IMG/VR virus record: IMGVR_UViG_3300031578_000013 | Span: 1-64,000 of that record | DNA: 64,000 nt | Direction: 5' to 3' (one strand) | Source: a virus | Shown: piece after piece, positions 3 through 46,513 of the stretch | Layout: every line of letters begins with the position of its first letter | Numbering within the stretch: position 1 is the stretch's first letter | Program-made: the position numbers and the translations under genes | The notes under the pieces: model-generated | Database searches by the model: none | The model's input: only the letters and a program-made list of their open reading frames with translations | Told to the model about the DNA's origin: nothing

Positions 3-278
3 GCACTCGCTGTAAAGCATGGTCTCAATGATGAAGGTATTGTCGAAGGCGTAATCCAGTTCATCGTTATCGCTGTACTGATCGTCTTTGTTCCGGGTAT
101 CCTCTATGTGGTCAGCACTGGAGCAATCGAAGTTCCTGTTGGAACAATCTTCTACAACGCATCGCAATCAACCAACACAAACGTTGCAAACGGTGTTTCA
201 ACGATTGGTGTGATTCCCACCATCTTTGCCATTGTGCTCATCATCGGTGTGCTCATGTTACTGGCAATGAGGAGATAA
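3..278 (+). CDS. Putative major capsid protein, paralog 1 (5'-truncated by window)
   Basis: Manual translation: ...ALAVKHGLNDEGIVEGVIQFIVIAVLIVFVPGILYVVSTGAIEVPVGTIFYNASQSTNTNVANGVSTIGVIPTIFAIVLIIGVLMLLAMRR*. Two hydrophobic helices, a loop with an NAS sequon and a basic C-terminus. Near-identical to 307..651. Confidence 0.7.
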   Translation, partial: ALAVKHGLNDEGIVEGVIQFIVIAVLIVFVPGILYVVSTGAIEVPVGTIFYNASQSTNTNVANGVSTIGVIPTIFAIVLIIGVLMLLAMRR

Positions 279-482
279 CCCTAAAAACATTTTTGGGGGT
301 ATTCTCATGTTTCTCAAAGAAGAACTACAGTCGAAGATGGAAAGTATTCGTTCTGGTGTTGAACCAACCGTTCGTAGAATGGCAAAGAACGCTGGGGTGA
401 ATGATGATGCAATAGTGGAAGGTGTCATCCAGTTCATCGTTATCGCTGTACTGATCGTCTTTGTTCCGGGTATCCTCTATGT
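54..482 (+). repeat. 56-bp perfect direct repeat (54-109 and 427-482) shared by the two capsid-like paralogs
   Basis: ATCCAGTTCATCGTTATCGCTGTACTGATCGTCTTTGTTCCGGGTATCCTCTATGT is identical in both genes. Confidence 0.95.
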
Positions 483-651
483 CGTATCAAATTCTGCGAT
501 AGATATCCCAGTGAACACTACGTTCTACAACGCAAGCATTACAACAAATACTAATGTTGCAAACGGTGTGTCTACCATTGGTGTGATCCCGACTATCTTT
601 GCGATAGTTTTGATCATTGGCGTGCTCATGTTACTGGCGATGAGACGCTAA
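307..651 (+). CDS. Putative major capsid protein, paralog 2 (spindle-virus helix-hairpin type)
   Basis: Hydrophilic N-terminal leader, two hydrophobic helices separated by a loop with NTT and NAS sequons, C-terminal RR. Same architecture as the fusellovirus VP1/VP3 pair. Confidence 0.7.
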   Translation: MFLKEELQSKMESIRSGVEPTVRRMAKNAGVNDDAIVEGVIQFIVIAVLIVFVPGILYVVSNSAIDIPVNTTFYNASITTNTNVANGVSTIGVIPTIFAIVLIIGVLMLLAMRR

Positions 652-717
652 TAAATTTCAAAACATAGTACAAAACAACGAGATTTCCCAAAAGGGGTTT
701 GGGTAAAAACCCCACTT

Positions 718-1581
718 TTAAGTGCCACTTCGTCTTCCCCATTGTTGATCTAATAAAGAACCATTTGGATATCGAATGTTATATTCTTCTAACGACAACA
801 TGCATTTATTTCCATATTCAAGTGCGATAGTTTCTCGCAATCTCGTTTCAAATTCCGGTTTGTTGCCTTCTCTCGCATGACACGATTTACATAATGTTGC
901 AAATAACCATCCGGATTTATTATTGTTACAGCATGTGGATTTATCACGTGTTACATGATGGACACTCATGTGTTTGTTGTCATTATCTTCTATCCCGGCT
1001 CTACAAAATATGCATTTATTTCCATATCTCGCCCTTACACGCTTTCGGATTTTTAATATCGGATCTGTCCATTTCTTGCAATATACACCAGCCGTTGCAA
1101 ATCTTTTCCAATCTTCTTCTGGGATACCCTGGTGAGATGCACTCATTTTCATTCTGATGTCTTCTGATATGCTCATACCAACATGACACTCTGCAATTTT
1201 TCCTTTCATCTCATCAGAAAAACTCTTTCCATAATTGTGATTCTTCTCACCGCTTGTCGCAATCCTAATCTTCTCTTTAACCTCCTCTGATAATTGTTTA
1301 CCATAATTATAATGCTTCTCCCCTCTATTGGCATCACCAATCGCCTTTTTTATATACTCTGGTCTGTGCGTTCCATACAAAGGATTCTTATCACCTCTTC
1401 GCGAATCCCCGATTTTCTTTCTTGTCTCTTCTGAAAATACCTTCCCAAAATTGTGATTCTTCTCACCAGAATGTGAGAGTCGCATTTTTTCTCTCGTGGC
1501 ATCACTGGCTGTGTGTCCCGTTCTTGCAAGCCTGTTTTTTTCCAGGTGTTCCGGAGATTGTTTGTAACCTTTCTTTGGCAT
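718..1581 (-). CDS. NUMOD3-repeat HNH homing endonuclease
   Basis: Repeated GEKNHN(F/Y)GK..SEE.K.KI motifs; C-terminal CxxC...VHH...LCKSCH. Confidence 0.85.
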   Translation of the reverse strand: MPKKGYKQSPEHLEKNRLARTGHTASDATREKMRLSHSGEKNHNFGKVFSEETRKKIGDSRRGDKNPLYGTHRPEYIKKAIGDANRGEKHYNYGKQLSEEVKEKIRIATSGEKNHNYGKSFSDEMKGKIAECHVGMSISEDIRMKMSASHQGIPEEDWKRFATAGVYCKKWTDPILKIRKRVRARYGNKCIFCRAGIEDNDNKHMSVHHVTRDKSTCCNNNKSGWLFATLCKSCHAREGNKPEFETRLRETIALEYGNKCMLSLEEYNIRYPNGSLLDQQWGRRSGT

Positions 1582-1688
1582 ACGTATTGATATTTGGTGT
1601 TTACACTGTTAATACTTTTGTTATTGTTTAGATAATTGCACCAACAGTAAGAAATAAATTTACATGCACTAACATCATCATAATTACT

Positions 1689-3056
1689 ATGGATAGGCGC
1701 GACTATACATTTCTCGTAATCCTCGCGCTTGGATGTGCAATGCATCTTTCATTGCTCGCAACATCCAACCTTTCAAACTATAACCTCTACGATACCGACA
1801 CATGGTGTTTCGTGTGGATGTATTCGCAATGGTTTCACCTGTCACCACTATCAACATTTAATATTCTTGCATTATTTCCACCAATATTATCAGCGTTATT
1901 TGCAGTATCAATCTATTATCTCATCACTAGGCTATATAATAAAACGGTTGGATTTTATGCCGGAGTAATGTTTGCGATATCACCGGGATTGTTATATCTG
2001 AATAGTATGTTCGGAATGATAGACCATCACCTGATACAAGTCGTGCTTTTCACGCTGTCCATTGTATGTCTTTTGTTGTTATACAAGGAACGCAACGTGT
2101 GGTGGGTTATCCCAATAATCATTTCTCTGATTTGTATTCGTTTTACTTCTCCGGTATTAGACGAGATATATTATGGGTTGTTTATCGTGTGTGCGATCAT
2201 TTGCGCTGTTCATTATTTAATTACACTGCGGTACTACAAAATGGCAGTCTTGACATTTGTGGCTGTTATTGCATCTGGTTTTTGGCTATTACAACCGTTA
2301 AACATTATCCCACGAGCAACAAGTTGGATTTCCTGGGTAGAACCAATTACTGAAATACAACCATCAGATCCAATAATATTCTTGATAAAATTTAACACTT
2401 TATTATTCGTTATCATTTTGGGTGTTGCTTCATTTCATCATTCGGATAAAGATGCACCAGAAATCATATTGATATTTCTTACTGTAGTATTATTCATTGC
2501 GACATTAAGATTTGTCAGGATGGAATATATATTCGCTGCCCCATTGATGATCCTATCGGCGTATTATATTGATAAGTATTTCACACGAGACATATCCCAC
2601 TCCATAATAGCAATATTCCTAATTATATCTATTCTATTCGGATGCGTTATTACAGCAGAGATGATGAGGACTGAAATAAACAACGAGGCATGGGATGGTG
2701 CGCTGAAATTTATATCAAAAGAACCGAATGGGCTGGTTCTATCACATGGGGATTATGGATACTGGATTAAGAATGCCAACCAAACAGAGTTCGATAATTC
2801 AGCGTGGGGAAACGCGCTCAACGGAGGAAAGATATTCACTTCGTCTAATATAACAGCAGCGAAAGAATTGATAATGTCGCATGGTATATCTTATATAATT
2901 GTTACCGAGCGGGATATGCGATATTATGAAGCACAGCAGTTCTATGCAAAATCAACAACTGATTATAATGAGAGCATGCTATTCAAATTAATACGTGGGA
3001 CTTCTGGTTATGATGCGATATATTCAAAAGATGGTATTATAATATATAAGACGTAA
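1689..3056 (+). CDS. aglB: Compact AglB/STT3-like oligosaccharyltransferase (GT-C fold) with variant WWDYG motif
   Basis: Multi-TM N-terminal part with motifs in AglB order: DTDTW, PPIL..L, AISPG...GMIDHH, PITEIQP (TIXE-like) and RFVRMEY. The soluble domain has W..AL.F, VLSHGDYGYWI (for WWDYG) and YIIV..D. Confidence 0.8.
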   Translation: MDRRDYTFLVILALGCAMHLSLLATSNLSNYNLYDTDTWCFVWMYSQWFHLSPLSTFNILALFPPILSALFAVSIYYLITRLYNKTVGFYAGVMFAISPGLLYLNSMFGMIDHHLIQVVLFTLSIVCLLLLYKERNVWWVIPIIISLICIRFTSPVLDEIYYGLFIVCAIICAVHYLITLRYYKMAVLTFVAVIASGFWLLQPLNIIPRATSWISWVEPITEIQPSDPIIFLIKFNTLLFVIILGVASFHHSDKDAPEIILIFLTVVLFIATLRFVRMEYIFAAPLMILSAYYIDKYFTRDISHSIIAIFLIISILFGCVITAEMMRTEINNEAWDGALKFISKEPNGLVLSHGDYGYWIKNANQTEFDNSAWGNALNGGKIFTSSNITAAKELIMSHGISYIIVTERDMRYYEAQQFYAKSTTDYNESMLFKLIRGTSGYDAIYSKDGIIIYKT

Positions 3057-3063
3057 AAAAGTA

Positions 3064-3819
3064 TTATTCCCTTTTTCTTACCGATACAAGAAACATTGCA
3101 ATGGCTACGGCAAATCCTATGATAAATGGGGGTAGTGGCGTTTCTTGGACAGTTAACGTTTGATAAGATGCCCCATCATCTCCCCCATTTGCAGGACAGA
3201 TATACCATCCACTCTCAATCATAGAAGCCCGAAGATTGCCACCAATTACCATTGATACTGTTCTTGCTGGCAAATTTGATGTACTGGCATATATTTTTAT
3301 TACAATACGATCTCCGTCAAATAGCGTAGTCGAATTTCGGCGGGCATATGATGTTAGAAATTCTGTAGCCACGGGATTATCAATATCCTCCGTTATGAAC
3401 GGTTTGTAGAATAATTTCGTTTCTACACCAGTAGAACTACGGTTGTATAGTTTAAACTCGATGCGTGTGAGTCCAGTAGCACTTGTAGTATTTAAATATA
3501 CACGCGATCTCCACAACCCAGGCGCAATTGTTGTTACTCCCGGAGAACCATCTGGGGTTACAAATGCACCAAGAAGAACTTCTCCCGATGCCGGGACTAT
3601 ATCTACTGCTTGAACCAACGATTCATCGGCTTTTTCAGGGATATGATCGATTATTTTATACGAACCATCTTTAATTAGGTCAGATGATTCGTTCCAGAAG
3701 AATATATCCTGTTTTCCGCACCATAAGAAATCTTCCGATTCACACGATGCAATAGGAGCAATAATAGCAATCATCGCAATAAAAGAGAGTATAACAACCA
3801 ATCGTTTTAAGTTTGTCAT
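3064..3819 (-). CDS. Secreted, C-terminally anchored surface/virion protein
   Basis: N-terminal signal peptide and several sequons. C-terminus is TPLPP + TM + RKRE, resembling an archaeal CTERM sorting signal. Confidence 0.65.
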   Translation of the reverse strand: MTNLKRLVVILSFIAMIAIIAPIASCESEDFLWCGKQDIFFWNESSDLIKDGSYKIIDHIPEKADESLVQAVDIVPASGEVLLGAFVTPDGSPGVTTIAPGLWRSRVYLNTTSATGLTRIEFKLYNRSSTGVETKLFYKPFITEDIDNPVATEFLTSYARRNSTTLFDGDRIVIKIYASTSNLPARTVSMVIGGNLRASMIESGWYICPANGGDDGASYQTLTVQETPLPPFIIGFAVAIAMFLVSVRKRE

Positions 3820-3910
3820 GCATAGAATGTAATCATGCAATTGTATTATTACTTTCCATGCTCTGAATAAAAGAAAGACTTAATACAGTTATAGTATCAT
3901 AATCTTCTAT

Positions 3911-4399
3911 ATGATTACCATCCCAAAGCGACTCCTTATTCTTATCACTCTTGTATTGCTTATTATACAACCAGCAATTGCCTCAATACCCGACTCTGGA
4001 ATGTCAAGTTATATTACCACCTCGGATGTTGTTATCAACACACCATATCTTGATTTCAACACATGGGTTTTCATAACACTATTGGGATTCTTCTTCCTGA
4101 TACTAAGTAACTTTGCAAAACCAGATCAGGCTCCGAAGTTGTGGGCAATTATCGCTCCACTCTTTATAGGCCCGTCGGCATATTTTGTTTTGATGCTTCG
4201 GAGAGTTACAGTTGGTATGCATATGACATCCACAGAGATGCATATTAACGCGGTTAATACAATTATGCACCCAGAGTGGCTTTGCTTTGTGATGTCGGTA
4301 ATTCTAGTCATAGCGTTGATTAACGTATGGGTGCAATTATCAAAACAACCCATTGAGAAAACGAAGAAAGAAGATATTTTGGGGAGTGGTGGTTTCTAA
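3911..4399 (+). CDS. Multi-TM membrane protein
   Basis: Signal peptide plus ~3 TM segments; TATA-like CTTAATA at ~3879. Confidence 0.7.
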   Translation: MITIPKRLLILITLVLLIIQPAIASIPDSGMSSYITTSDVVINTPYLDFNTWVFITLLGFFFLILSNFAKPDQAPKLWAIIAPLFIGPSAYFVLMLRRVTVGMHMTSTEMHINAVNTIMHPEWLCFVMSVILVIALINVWVQLSKQPIEKTKKEDILGSGGF

Positions 4400-43364: not shown

Positions 43365-43690
43365 GCGACGAGCACTCGGGGCAATCGGGGTTTGTTCGGT
43401 GGTTTCGTAATAAATATCCAAGCATCTTAATTTTTGCCATCCCTAACGGAAGTTACAGGGATATGTCAACTGCGAAGAAATTAAAAAAAGAGGGGGTTGT
43501 TTCGGGTGTCCCCGACTTGTATGTACCGAAGTACCATTTATGGATTGAGATGAAGCGCAAAGAGGGCGGCGTGTTATCAGAGGAACAAAAGGCAATGCAT
43601 CACTACTTAACTATGATAGGGGATACGGTAATAGTTGGTTACGGTGCAGAAGACGCAAGCCGCAAAGTTTTAGGGGTGATTGGATGGTAA
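43361..43690 (+). CDS. VRR-NUC domain nuclease
   Basis: EH..Q, AIPNG, GVPDL, IEMK...G.LS.EQ. Confidence 0.85.
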   Translation: MSDEHSGQSGFVRWFRNKYPSILIFAIPNGSYRDMSTAKKLKKEGVVSGVPDLYVPKYHLWIEMKRKEGGVLSEEQKAMHHYLTMIGDTVIVGYGAEDASRKVLGVIGW

Positions 43691-44745
43691 TCGTAATTGA
43701 AGGGGATTGTCTTGATGTCATGAAGATGTTTGATAATGATATGTTCGACTCCATCGTGACTGATCCACCAGCAGGGATTTCATTCATGGGAAAAAAGTGG
43801 GATCATGACAAAGGTGGGCGTAACCAGTGGATAGCGTGGATGACAACCGTTGCTACCGAATGTCTGCGTGTCATTAAACCCGGTGGACACGCATTGGTAT
43901 GGTCTATTCCGAGAACGAGCCATTGGACTGCTACAGCGTGGGAAAATGCGGGGTGGGAATGTCGCGACAAAATTGTACATATTTTCGGAAGTGGGTTTCC
44001 GAAAAGTTTAAATATAAGTAAATCTTTGGATGCGATGTTGGGAGCAGAGCGGGAAGTTATTGGGAATAGAACGAGAGTATATGGTTACGAGAAGGACTAT
44101 CACAATTCGTTTGATAATGCATTGTTTGATGTGGGAAACAATAATAAAATTACCGCTCCCACAACAGACATTGCTAAACTTTTTGACGGCTACGGCACCT
44201 CACTCAAACCGGCGCACGAAGATTGGTTGCTCTTTCGTAAACCATTGGCGGGCACAGTCGCGCAGAACGTTTTAAAATATGGCGTGGGTGGGATTAACAT
44301 TGACGGGTGTAGGGTTGAGTTAAACGGAGAAAAGCCATTCCACTATCCAAACGGTGCGGGGGGTAGCGATCCTAATCATATGTGGCGAGGTAGAGAGAAG
44401 GGAGATGGTGACATTCCGCAGATGGGGAATGACAAAGGACGTTTCCCTGCGAATTTAATTCTTGACGATAGTGAATGTGTGAGGGAGTTGTTTCCACATA
44501 GCAAATCTGGGGCAATGACAAAGCCATATGTTTATACAAATACGGGCCATTCGTTAGGTAAGCCTGCAGGTTCCACAAAAACACTTTGTGAATCAAGTGA
44601 AGGTTCCGCAGCCCGTTTCTTCTATTGTGCGAAGGCGAGCAGAAGCGAAAGATCAGAAGGATGCGAAGAGTTTTATACTTTAAACAGCAATATATCTACA
44701 GATGACATAAACGAGATTGTTAAAATACTCGCTTTTGTTACATAA
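43684..44745 (+). CDS. N6/N4 DNA methyltransferase, N-terminal fragment (catalytic motif)
   Basis: GDC, TDPPAG, KPGG, GSGFPKS, LKPAHE, RFPAN, ARFFYCAKAS; lacks FxGxG. Confidence 0.85.
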   Translation: MVIVIEGDCLDVMKMFDNDMFDSIVTDPPAGISFMGKKWDHDKGGRNQWIAWMTTVATECLRVIKPGGHALVWSIPRTSHWTATAWENAGWECRDKIVHIFGSGFPKSLNISKSLDAMLGAEREVIGNRTRVYGYEKDYHNSFDNALFDVGNNNKITAPTTDIAKLFDGYGTSLKPAHEDWLLFRKPLAGTVAQNVLKYGVGGINIDGCRVELNGEKPFHYPNGAGGSDPNHMWRGREKGDGDIPQMGNDKGRFPANLILDDSECVRELFPHSKSGAMTKPYVYTNTGHSLGKPAGSTKTLCESSEGSAARFFYCAKASRSERSEGCEEFYTLNSNISTDDINEIVKILAFVT

Positions 44746-44754
44746 GGTAATATT

Positions 44755-45453
44755 ATGGGTAAGCGAACGGTTTTTAAAAAATATATAATAAAAAAATGTA
44801 TTTTTTGTGGTGTTGATATACTAAAACGCTCAAATGAAAGCATCAATACCTATTATAAACGAAAGTTTTGCAAATTGTCTTGCCAACATCAATGGAATGC
44901 GAAAAATAAAAGTAGCGATGTCAAATGTGATTTTTGTGGAATTTTATTAAGACGGAGAAACAGTGGCATCGGGGTTCATAATTTTTGTTCAGAACGTTGC
45001 CAATATAAATATTATTCTCAAACTCACACAAAAATCGCTTCGTGTAATTGGTGTGGGAAATCATTTACTAAAAAATTATCGGATCGTAAAACCAAAAGAG
45101 TATTTTGTACACGAAAATGCATGGGTGAGTGGCAATCTAAATATGTTATAGGAGAATTGTCCCCCAGTTGGAATGGGGGATCGTCTTCACTGAATCGTAG
45201 AATACGTAGTTTGGTGAAATATGTTACTTGGATGAAACGAGTTTATAATAGGGATAATTATACCTGTCAAGTGTGCGGAGATGCAGTTGGTGGAAATTTA
45301 AATGTGCACCATATTAAATCTCTTTCAAAAATTATCAAAGATTGTGGTATAAAATGTATTGCAGATGCCATCATTTGTTCCGAGTTGTGGGATATAGAAA
45401 ATGGTGTAACAGTTTGTAAAAAATGTCATGCAATTAAACACAGGAGGAAATAG
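44755..45453 (+). CDS. HNH homing endonuclease with Zn-finger repeats, inserted in the MTase gene
   Basis: Repeated CxxC...FC...C; RDNYTCQVCG...VHHIK...NGVTVCKKCH. Confidence 0.85.
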   Translation: MGKRTVFKKYIIKKCIFCGVDILKRSNESINTYYKRKFCKLSCQHQWNAKNKSSDVKCDFCGILLRRRNSGIGVHNFCSERCQYKYYSQTHTKIASCNWCGKSFTKKLSDRKTKRVFCTRKCMGEWQSKYVIGELSPSWNGGSSSLNRRIRSLVKYVTWMKRVYNRDNYTCQVCGDAVGGNLNVHHIKSLSKIIKDCGIKCIADAIICSELWDIENGVTVCKKCHAIKHRRK

Positions 45454-45454
45454 A

Positions 45455-45727
45455 ATGATAATATCAAAAGAGCAATACAATAAACTTCCAAAAAATTTAC
45501 AAGATTGCTTTGAACCTATGAAAAATATTCATCCTACGGTCAAACCCATTGCCCTCTGCAGATACCTCTGCCGTCTCATCACACCCCCAAAGGGATTAAT
45601 CCTTGATCCTTTCGCGGGTTCTGGTTCCACTGGGGTTGCTGCTACTAATGAAGGGTTTGAAAGTATCCTGATTGAGTTAGAACATACATCGTGTGAAACT
45701 GCACGAATGAGGAATGGCTTACATTGA
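45455..45727 (+). CDS. N6/N4 DNA methyltransferase, C-terminal fragment (SAM-binding motif)
   Basis: HPTVKP..L..YL..L, LDPFAGSGSTG; own AGGAGG RBS at 45442. Confidence 0.85.
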   Translation: MIISKEQYNKLPKNLQDCFEPMKNIHPTVKPIALCRYLCRLITPPKGLILDPFAGSGSTGVAATNEGFESILIELEHTSCETARMRNGLH

Positions 45728-45751
45728 TGAATACCGCAACGGAGCAAAACA

Positions 45752-46513
45752 ATGATTGAACCAAACCGAATATACTGCGGGGATAATGTAAAAGTAATGC
45801 AAGATATCCCAGACGAAAGTATTGATCTGACGGTAACATCCCCACCATATGACAAACTGCGAATATATCAAGGCTATTCCTTTGATTTTGCACGAGTAGC
45901 ACAGGAGTTATATCGTATAACAAAGAAGGGTGGTGTTGTTGTCTGGGTTGTTGGTGATGCCACAATTAAAGGAAGTGAAAGTGGAACTTCTTTTAGACAG
46001 GCACTTCATTTTAAAGAGATTGGATTCAATCTGCATGATACGATGATCTATGCGAAGAATAGCTATATGCCACTTACACACAATAGGTATGAGCAAGCGT
46101 TTGACTATATGTTTGCTTTCAGTAAAGGGAAACCCAACATATTCAATGCTATAAAAATACCTTCGGTTACCGCAGGGACAACCCGCAACCGTGGTGGTAG
46201 CAAGGCAAAAGAAGTCACATATTCAGAACGAGTGAGAAATGAAAAAACCGTGGTGTCTACGACAAAGCAGCATCCGAATATATTCTATTATGATGTCGGA
46301 AAAAATGATAAAACAGAACATAATGCACCATTCCCAGAACGGTTAGCAAATGATCACATCCTCTCTTGGAGCAACGAAGGTGACATTGTTTTAGATCCGT
46401 TCAATGGTTCTGGGACAACTACAAAAATGGCAAAGAAAAACAATCGCAAATTTATCGGAATCGACATCTCTCAACAATATTGTGATAATGCTATGGCACG
46501 ATTAGAAATGTGA
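45752..46513 (+). CDS. N4/N6 DNA methyltransferase (beta class)
   Basis: TSPPY, H.APFP, LDPFNGSGTT. Confidence 0.9.
   Translation: MIEPNRIYCGDNVKVMQDIPDESIDLTVTSPPYDKLRIYQGYSFDFARVAQELYRITKKGGVVVWVVGDATIKGSESGTSFRQALHFKEIGFNLHDTMIYAKNSYMPLTHNRYEQAFDYMFAFSKGKPNIFNAIKIPSVTAGTTRNRGGSKAKEVTYSERVRNEKTVVSTTKQHPNIFYYDVGKNDKTEHNAPFPERLANDHILSWSNEGDIVLDPFNGSGTTTKMAKKNNRKFIGIDISQQYCDNAMARLEM

Follow-up and report, generated by a model that had tools for sequence, protein, structure and literature searches.

Oligosaccharyltransferase (OST) is the signature enzyme of N-glycosylation and has so far been regarded as cellular, and archaeal viruses are thought to depend on the OST of the host (PMC10384203). 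The canonical enzyme has 13 transmembrane (TM) helices, and the roles of its catalytic and metal-binding residues, such as D161 and H163 of AglB-L from Archaeoglobus fulgidus (AfAglB-L), have been described (PMC7226087). AglB-S1 and AglB-S2, with 591 and 593 amino acids (aa), were called the shortest known STT3/AglB/PglB proteins in 2013, in the paper in which the DK-type motif was defined (PMC3703281). Here, we analysed 64,000 nucleotides of DNA from an uncultured, archaeal-type virus (the window), which are the first 64 kb of the 76,161-base IMG/VR record IMGVR_UViG_3300031578_000013, classed as linear with a CheckV completeness of 75%. The gene in question encodes a protein of 455 aa, which a first-pass annotation, made from the letters alone, had taken for an AglB/STT3 homologue carried by a virus. 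Judged by sequence profiles and the modelled fold, it is a genuine one on a virus record.

We see about an even chance that this gene is a virus-borne, miniaturised and catalytically competent OST which arose from archaeal AglB and glycosylates the virus's own exported proteins with host glycans. The observations on which this reading draws are the homology, the fold, the intact active-site residues, purifying selection, a conserved place near structural genes and an excess of sequons. The enzymatic activity, the donor and the acceptors are what we infer.

Homology, fold and selection

The gene and its motifs are located as follows.

1689..3056, plus strand: mini-AglB gene, 455 aa from an ATG start, with about 11 predicted TM helices (aa 1-331) and a small C-terminal alpha/beta domain (aa 332-455)
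1791..1799, plus strand: DTD (aa 35-37); D37 corresponds to the catalytic D47 of AfAglB-L in the profile alignment to 5GMY/3WAJ
2013..2030, plus strand: GMIDHH (aa 109-114); D112 and H114 are aligned to the metal ligands D161 and H163 of AfAglB-L
2346..2354, plus strand: ITE (aa 220-222), located in loop EL5, with E222 as the catalytic Glu (TIXE type)
2508..2522, plus strand: RFVRM (aa 274-278); R277 is aligned to R426 of AfAglB-L
2745..2759, plus strand: HGDYG replacing WWDYG (aa 353-357); CAT GGG GAT at 2745-2753
2913..2924, plus strand: DMRY (aa 409-412) at the position of the DK-type motif; R411 stands where relatives carry Lys and Q416 where relatives carry Met

The reading frame and all the motifs listed in the first-pass annotation, HGDYG and DMRY included, were verified at these positions. 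The metal-binding residues are kept, as had been claimed there, and so are the catalytic ones; the Trp-Trp of WWD is gone and the Lys of the DK-type motif is now Arg. From the order of the motifs, E222 would be the equivalent of E360 of AfAglB-L. R426 of that enzyme, the counterpart of R277, is the contact to the lipid phosphate. The region of the DK-type motif reads D-M-R-Y-Y-E-A-Q in the window protein and D-x-K-F-Y-x-A-M in its relatives in the family alignment. Its register relative to K618 of AfAglB-L is approximate, as two alignments differ by a one-residue shift, and the exchange of Lys for Arg is conservative. In the variant of contig L090 (99.5% identity), Ile is found at the position of Arg411; the contig is truncated and ends with this codon, so that the Ile may be an assembly error.

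The protein is also shortened. In the subclade of the window protein, loop EL1 after DTD is ~32 residues shorter, as the stretch N-Y-P-x-G-R-x-I-D-W-G, which aligns with Y-Y-P-Y-G-S-Y-T-H-F-G of AglB-L, is absent. Between its TM7 and EL5, AglB-L has about 100 residues that are unmatched in the alignment with the window protein. Hydropathy and DSSP on the structural model both gave ~11 TM helices, compared with the canonical 13.

The Pfam family STT3 (PF02516; GT66) matched the protein with 31.3 bits at a gathering cut-off of 24.5 (E=2e-7), and a six-frame search of the 76-kb record found PF02516 again, as its only STT3 match. The best NCBIfam model was TIGR04154 (archaeosortase-A-associated STT3), of which the protein is not a member (59.5 bits at a cut-off of 450). 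Meanwhile, a family profile of the window protein and seven relatives matched AfAglB-L at E=4e-20, and this alignment paired D37 with D47, D112 and H114 with D161 and H163, R277 with R426, and H353-G354-D355 with W550-W551-D552. The only invariant columns in an alignment of 29 sequences were D37, G109, D112, H114, E222 and R277, which, as read from the alignment, are the catalytic, metal-binding and donor-binding positions.

A model built with AlphaFold2 from the 29-sequence alignment had a mean predicted local distance difference test (pLDDT) score of 92 and a predicted template modelling score (pTM) of 0.89; the stretch of EL5 around E222 had a pLDDT of 62-67, as is expected for the mobile EL5. 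When the model was compared with the PDB using Foldseek, STT3/AglB/PglB chains held ranks 1-19 (E 1e-11 to 2e-8), followed at lower ranks by the C-mannosyltransferase DPY19 (6e-6) and by AftA, ALG12 and ArnT (~3e-3). VIA-align superposed the model on the solved OSTs with Z 20.8-26.6, aligning 406-449 of the 455 residues at 2.6-4.3 Å (A. fulgidus 3WAK: Z 24.3, 449 residues, 2.8 Å), and the C-terminal 127 residues alone matched the AglB-S2 core domain 3VU0 with Z 16.2 at 2.1 Å. DPY19 and PMT fell below the OSTs (Z about 19-20), PMT covering the TM part only. A fold search of BFVD gave no match at E<0.001; weak matches included the 580-aa Q684B0 and proteins of Nitrosopumilus spindle-shaped virus.

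The profile search and the superposition on A. fulgidus AglB thus upheld the STT3/AglB assignment, and a best match to a GT-C enzyme other than an OST was not observed. Another GT-C family as the identity of the protein was rejected, as OSTs were the top matches in both sequence and fold. On its sequence, the protein is filed as an AglB-derived variant and not as a canonical AglB because HGDYG stands in the place of WWDYG.

Three assemblies of the subclade were recovered: L087 with an orthologue of 89% identity, L090 with the 99.5% variant and L091 with an N-terminal half that is 89% identical to the more distant orthologue P0004. Between the window and L087, the nonsynonymous (dN) and synonymous (dS) substitution rates of the AglB gene were 0.054 and 0.41, that is, a dN/dS of 0.13 (0.134 for the TM part and 0.125 for the C-terminal domain). 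The neighbour genes have similar values of 0.075-0.18 (a capsid-like protein, 0.075; an anchored protein of 258 aa, 0.085). The AglB gene is under purifying selection and is not decaying. Homologues that all keep WWD and a dN/dS near 1, the signs by which the first-pass annotation would have recognised decay, are absent: the closest homologues have RGD and WGD, and decay was rejected on the dN/dS of 0.13.

This evidence also bears on the proposal that the gene is a catalytically dead relic, or a structural membrane protein with a non-enzymatic role or en route to loss, which we regard as quite improbable. Such a relic would agree with the absence of WWD, with the shortened EL1 and the predicted deficit of ~2 TM helices, and with the absence or replacement of the gene in some relatives. 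It agrees poorly with the dN/dS of 0.13, with an open reading frame kept intact in four independent assemblies, with the confidently predicted fold and with the fact that the six invariant columns of the family are exactly the catalytic and donor-binding ones.

Loss of WWD and the sequons of the surface proteins

The homologues found were a 99% variant, the 89% orthologue (P0002, RGDYG) and a 46% orthologue (P0004, WGDYG, with the Lys and Met of the DK-type motif kept); relatives of 31-36% identity (476-489 aa) retain WWDYGHWI and the DK-type motif with both Lys and Met. An exhaustive search gave 234 matches at E<=1e-3. The 14 cluster representatives below 1e-30 were 455-494 aa long, save five shorter, evidently partial ones. 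In a maximum-likelihood tree of 47 sequences, the window protein lay inside a clade of 22 mini-AglBs (434-494 aa) that had a long stem and a support of 100 in the Shimodaira-Hasegawa-like approximate likelihood ratio test (SH-aLRT). The sister group of this clade includes euryarchaeal AglBs (Methanosarcinales, Methanophagales and Archaeoglobi) and Dehalococcoidia-type AglBs.

WWD is the majority state in the mini-AglB clade and hence is probably ancestral. It has been altered in at least five lineages of the clade, to [H/R/W]GD, FW[S/N], EWD/QWG/WMGDSG, VWD and WWN, and the tree gives WGD a second, independent origin in P0061. The clade variants WWD, WGD, HGD, RGD, FWN and EWD all have intact catalytic residues. 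WWDYG is intact in 18 of the 18 AglBs (567-1029 aa) from binned genomes in the tree. In the subclade of the window protein, G354 and D355 are fixed, G354 being constant among the orthologues down to 46% identity. The residue at position 353 differs (H, R or W), as if the constraint on it had been released after the loss of the second Trp. Thus, with regard to the HGDYG motif singled out in the first-pass annotation, the loss of WWD is conserved in the closest homologues (RGD and WGD), whereas the exact letters are not, since position 353 varies.

A pattern scan covering 185,579 species of bacteria and archaea, with one genome each, revealed, among the matches listed, none beyond 21-24% full-length identity. 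No additional member of the clade was found when IMG/VR was scanned with the AglB family alignment, and a scan of metagenome contigs with the subclade alignment gave no match. A DNA-pattern scan of metagenome contigs for Y-N-[FL]-Y-D-T-D-[ST]-W yielded L084-L092. Mini-AglBs were seen only in virus-like contexts and never in the cellular genomes searched.

Two surface proteins of the window are of importance as possible substrates.

3064..3840, minus strand: secreted protein of 258 aa that has 4 sequons and is anchored at its C-terminus; its gene converges with AglB and is a conserved neighbour, 92% identical in L087
57053..60085, plus strand: PKD-domain surface protein (adhesin) of 1010 aa with a PHROG tail-protein N-terminal domain (E=2.5e-21)

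The sequon-rich adhesin of which the first-pass annotation had spoken is indeed encoded: this PKD-domain protein has 42 N-X-S/T sequons where 19.5 were expected (p<0.0005). The 258-aa anchored protein has 4 where 1.4 were expected. Together, the surface and membrane proteins of the window contain 52 sequons (26.8 expected from shuffles), and ten cytoplasmic proteins contain 14 (19.9 expected). At the +2 residue after Asn in the surface proteins, only Thr was enriched (39 vs 15.3, z=6.8), Ser was slightly up (13 vs 9.6) and no alternative residue was enriched. An excess of sequons is likewise seen in the proteins encoded next to the mini-AglBs of L089 and L084. Counted on sequences, the N-X-T excess speaks against the acceptor code having changed wholesale; it would look the same whether the viral or the host enzyme served the sites.

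The families GT2, GT1/GT4, AglH-type GT4 and Polysacc_synt (flippase) gave no match in the 76-kb record, and therefore the enzyme would have to use host lipid-linked glycans. A complete N-glycosylation system was rejected on the same result, so that the virus-encoded system of the first-pass annotation shrinks to a lone transferase.

In sequence, the Ser/Thr pocket is clearly remodelled: WWD has become HGD and Lys has become Arg, with Asp355 kept. Since N-X-T is what selection maintains on the surface proteins, this sequon is most likely still used by the enzyme, perhaps with a looser or shifted preference. The earlier claim of changed acceptor recognition stands for the pocket motifs, which are altered, and is unsupported for the recognition itself: the canonical N-X-T is enriched and no other +2 residue is. 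A switch to another acceptor code is less likely; it ranks below the reading of N-X-T and is kept as the main rival to it.

According to this rival, which we think unlikely, the transferase is active and has been re-aimed. The rebuilt pocket (HGD, Arg411, Gln416 and the short EL1) would follow a different acceptor rule, be it a relaxed N-X-any, another +2 residue, or a specific viral or host protein recognised by its shape, and sites that the host enzyme cannot use would be served. The change of both motifs of the Ser/Thr pocket beside invariant catalytic residues is in keeping with it, and the change is old and maintained (G354 fixed at 46% identity; dN/dS of 0.125 in the C-terminal domain). 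That the viral clade has lost WWD in five or more of its lineages, compared with none of the 18 binned-genome AglBs in the tree, and that WGD arose a second time, in P0061, point the same way. The enrichment of Thr alone at +2 in the surface proteins speaks against re-aiming, as does the retention of Asp355, one of the residues of WWD that form hydrogen bonds. Position 353, being free (H, R or W), looks like a site of relaxed constraint and not like a newly tuned contact.

Neighbouring genes and viral context

The region upstream of the AglB gene contains the following features.

3..278, plus strand: capsid-like small protein, copy 1; the 5' end is cut by the record end; it shares 91% identity with the copy found on the 48-kb contig behind L091
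307..651, plus strand: capsid-like small protein, copy 2, 114 aa
694..713, plus strand: GC-rich hairpin after capsid-like copy 2, read from the sequence, with a 7-bp stem (GGGGTTT/AAACCCC) and a 6-nt loop, then ACTTTT (714-719)
714..1672, minus strand: free-standing NUMOD3/HNH-type homing-endonuclease cassette with an open reading frame at 718..1581 (Pfam NUMOD3, 100 bits; PHROG homing endonuclease)

The genes at 3..278 and 307..651 are tandem paralogues, and each codes for two long hydrophobic helices with a loop carrying NAS/NTT sequons. Their family comprises at least 80 clusters (90% identity level) of 112-117 aa with identities of 53-99%, many of them on contigs of 36-57 kb. It usually occurs in tandem pairs and is far commoner than the AglB subclade. 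One pair is labelled as belonging to a bacterial metagenome-assembled genome (MAG) of Proteiniphilum, which is probably a mis-binned viral contig. What these proteins share with the spindle-virus capsid proteins is the architecture only, namely two hydrophobic helices, an exposed glycosylatable loop, abundance and high conservation. We call them capsid-like because no homology to the capsid proteins of known spindle viruses could be demonstrated; from their sequence, a coat-protein identity is plausible. By ESM feature similarity (0.85), the nearest named clusters were His1_capsid and VP1_VP3, which is a lead only, and the AlphaFold2 model of the capsid-like protein had a pLDDT of 60.7. A tblastn search with this protein gave no match in 50,697 deposited phage and archaeal-virus records, and no relatives were found in an IMG/VR scan.

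The ~1 kb between the capsid-like genes and AglB is the homing-endonuclease cassette. Contigs of public runs, in which the virus was present in six soil-metagenome runs, include joints 662->1673 and 713->1673 (two runs) that lack the cassette; in these forms, the AglB start lies ~40-90 nt past the second capsid-like gene, and the 713->1673 joint falls exactly behind the hairpin. Among otherwise close relatives, the endonuclease is only 52-78% identical. In L090, where AglB has 99.5% identity, the endonuclease is 62% identical overall and its 5' part is near-identical, which suggests allele turnover or a mosaic at a single insertion site.

The gene order is repeated in independent assemblies. 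L087 has the 258-aa protein (92%), AglB (89%) and the endonuclease (78%); L090 has the capsid-like gene (97%), the endonuclease (62%) and AglB (99.5%); and L091, part of a contig of 48,184 bases, has the capsid-like gene (91%), the endonuclease (52%) and a WGD-type AglB. The linkage of AglB to the capsid-like genes, which had been put forward from the window alone, is thus conserved, and the order capsid-like gene, endonuclease, AglB is kept at 46% AglB identity. The genes that flank the FWN mini-AglB of L088/L089 encode a secreted PKD-like protein, a two-helix protein of 88 aa, an anchored glycoprotein of 513 aa and a homologue of window 3911..4399. In L084, the WWD-bearing P0008 has an anchored glycoprotein of 528 aa on one side and a basic-tailed protein on the other. 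The FWN module also holds, at L089 483-1976 (minus strand), a 497-aa polytopic membrane protein that has no Pfam match and may be a second GT-C-like enzyme.

AglB is an exchangeable accessory cassette of this virus group and not a core gene, because the segment of endonuclease and AglB varies or is replaced in population variants. To be an exchangeable accessory that adjoins a mobile endonuclease is typical of host-interaction genes, and it would suit an enzyme directed at the host instead of the virion. Such an enzyme would act on S-layer or receptor proteins, or would hydrolyse or divert the host lipid-linked glycan, and as a result superinfection would be blocked or release aided without decoration of the virion. 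OSTs can release free glycans, and a weakened peptide pocket would favour hydrolysis of the donor. Host N-glycosylation is, moreover, known to affect archaeal virus infection (PMC10384203). We nevertheless hold this, too, to be unlikely, as the position inside a virion-protein module beside sequon-rich secreted proteins is conserved in several lineages and nothing in the analysis points to a host target.

The replication module of the window is of virus type, with a PrimPol-helicase, an SNF2-type helicase, a PD-(D/E)XK nuclease, a Sak4-like ATPase and a DUF669 protein. Other genes encode several HNH proteins, DNA methylases, an RNA ligase and a small tyrosine-recombinase-like protein. What looks like a split N6/N4 DNA methylase lies at 43684-46513, with a partial N-terminal match at 43684..44745, an HNH reading frame at 44755..45453 and the full domain at 45752..46513. 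No tRNA, rRNA, Rfam RNA or cellular housekeeping genes were found in the 64-kb window, and no HK97 capsid, portal or terminase was recognised among its proteins in Pfam/PHROG-type searches.

As to the host, the PrimPol matches only bacterial phages among deposited viruses, which is uninformative, and a search of 401 sampled Halobacteriota genomes with the capsid-like profile gave one marginal match (E 9.7e-4). Immediately beyond the structural operon is an IS6-like transposase that has a zinc-finger region at its N-terminus (L083 525-1631, record 63525-64631) and had only weak matches, in five archaeal genomes. Further on, L083 6035-10264 encodes a 1409-aa protein rich in Ala, Pro and Thr that has a basic tail and 1 sequon where 3.8 were expected; the basic-tailed protein that adjoins the mini-AglB in L084 is like it.

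A contig that is a cellular or plasmid fragment or a chimera, with AglB as a host gene, is very improbable in our view. The linear, 75% complete record, the lack of a recognised hallmark capsid, portal or terminase family and the labelling of one capsid-like relative as a bacterial MAG protein could be read in that way. The repetition of the gene order in independent assemblies from other samples argues against it, together with the PrimPol-helicase, Sak4-like ATPase, DUF669, nuclease and HNH genes and the lack of tRNA, rRNA and housekeeping genes in 64 kb. The adhesin with its PHROG tail-protein domain, the lack of a close AglB in the species genomes (among the matches listed) and of a clear capsid-like match in the Halobacteriota genomes likewise speak for a virus.

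Proposed mechanism and comparison with known enzymes

In the mechanism that we favour, the viral AglB would insert into the host cytoplasmic membrane during infection and take the host dolichol-phosphate-linked glycan. The glycan would then be moved to Asn residues of secreted and membrane virion proteins, that is, the upstream two-helix capsid-like proteins, the 258-aa anchored protein and the PKD adhesin, the last of which is the likeliest heavily N-glycosylated substrate. The sequon may be read by D355 and the reshaped pocket.

Several points weigh against this mechanism. In every OST studied, WWD is held to be essential for reading the Ser/Thr at +2 (PMC7226087), and an enzyme with HGD might fail to bind sequons. 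The N-X-T excess could be met wholly by the host AglB. The first-pass annotation had placed the gene ~1 kb from capsid genes: the spacing and the NAS/NTT sequons were confirmed, the capsid identity was not. The capsid-like protein had no Pfam match at E<=1 to His1_capsid (PF25665) or to VP1_VP3 (PF06281) of Sulfolobus spindle-shaped viruses and no PHROG match, and hhalign compared it with His1 ORF21 (VP21) at a probability of 6.6%. The AglB gene is dispensable in some relatives, and one contig of sediment run X7 has 1289 other letters in place of the segment from the stop of the second capsid-like gene to the AglB stop (649-3056). Finally, as the record is only ~75% complete, glycan genes could sit in the missing part. 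Lower-depth contigs of run X7 still match the 3' part of AglB.

With regard to novelty, the first-pass annotation knew of no characterised viral OST, and the searches agree with this. No paper on a virus-encoded OST was found in the full-text literature, and a tblastn search of AglB against the 50,697 deposited phage and archaeal-virus genomes gave no homologue. Only putative glycosyltransferases are mentioned in viruses in a 2023 paper on archaeal virus glycosylation (PMC10384203). A scan of IMG/VR for W-W-D-Y-G-[HY]-W showed a true STT3-family gene on no more than two further contigs. One of them (L002/L095; IMGVR_UViG_3300025655_000107, 38 kb) encodes at L002 9269-11062 an unrelated 597-aa AglB that has an intact WWDYG and a Pfam score of 98.6 bits, the gene for an fn3-repeat protein of 2035 aa following closely downstream, and an IMG/VR scan for relatives of this AglB found none. 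On the other (IMGVR_UViG_3300035698_028676, 65.6 kb, G+C content 30%), an AglB of at least 782 aa lies at the end of the stretch (L097 1-2346); in the tree, it groups with the AglBs of two DPANN-type MAGs (L040 Nanoarchaeota and L045 Woesearchaeota) and could be host flank or a viral gene.

The OST is a known kind of enzyme; what is new is that it occurs in a viral setting, is miniaturised and has naturally lost WWD while under selection. With an OST of their own, some viruses would control their own virion glycan coat, with consequences for host recognition, stability and evasion. A further-reaching proposal, which we consider doubtful, is that an entire archaeal virus lineage carries the smallest natural OSTs (434-494 aa, ~11 TM helices) in its virion-protein modules and performs the last step of N-glycosylation itself, and that, in the branch of the window, the otherwise universal WWD was replaced (by HGD, RGD or WGD) under purifying selection, giving a new or relaxed acceptor rule. 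If so, this OST would be a natural experiment on sequon reading. The natural WWD variants of the clade make the strictness of the need for WWD in sequon reading directly testable side by side. With its 455 aa, its short EL1, a C-terminal domain reduced to the core and a probable 11 TM helices, the protein can serve structural studies and glyco-engineering as a minimal scaffold.

Among viral systems, chlorovirus PBCV-1 is a functional analogy to the re-aimed transferase, as its own enzymes glycosylate the major capsid protein at sites outside the host rule. Chloroviruses use cytoplasmic glycosyltransferases, have no STT3-type enzyme and show no homology to the window protein. A197 of Sulfolobus turreted icosahedral virus (GT-A) and His1 ORF31 (GT-B-type; annotated as glycosyltransferase in the His1 record) are virus-encoded glycosylation enzymes too, but, unlike the window protein, they are soluble builders of glycans from nucleotide sugars and not lipid-linked en-bloc N-transferases.

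Of the cellular enzymes, Campylobacter PglB (3RCE, 5OGL) has the same single-subunit fold (Z about 21), but differs in its MI-type pocket, the need for an acidic residue at -2, its 713 aa, its 13 TM helices and its bacterial chromosomal gene. A. fulgidus AglB-L (3WAJ/3WAK/5GMY/7E9S) has the same single-subunit GT-C OST fold as the window protein, and its catalytic set D47/D161/H163/E360/R426 corresponds to D37/D112/H114/E222/R277. In its minimal, core-only C-terminal domain, the window protein resembles AglB-S1 and AglB-S2 (C-terminal domains 3VGP and 3VU0), and it is 136 residues shorter than AglB-S1. It differs from the A. fulgidus AglBs in its 16-20% identity, its predicted ~11 instead of 13 TM helices, its EL1 shorter by ~32 residues, HGD, Arg and its viral setting. 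The WWD-bearing mini-AglBs (P0005-P0010 and the protein of L084) are close systems too. These keep WWDYGHWI, D-x-K-F-Y-x-A-M and the full EL1, unlike the window protein, but share with it the architecture, the invariant residues and the length class (434-494 aa). They are 31-36% identical to it, belong to the same clade (SH-aLRT 100) and stand beside sequon-rich secreted proteins.

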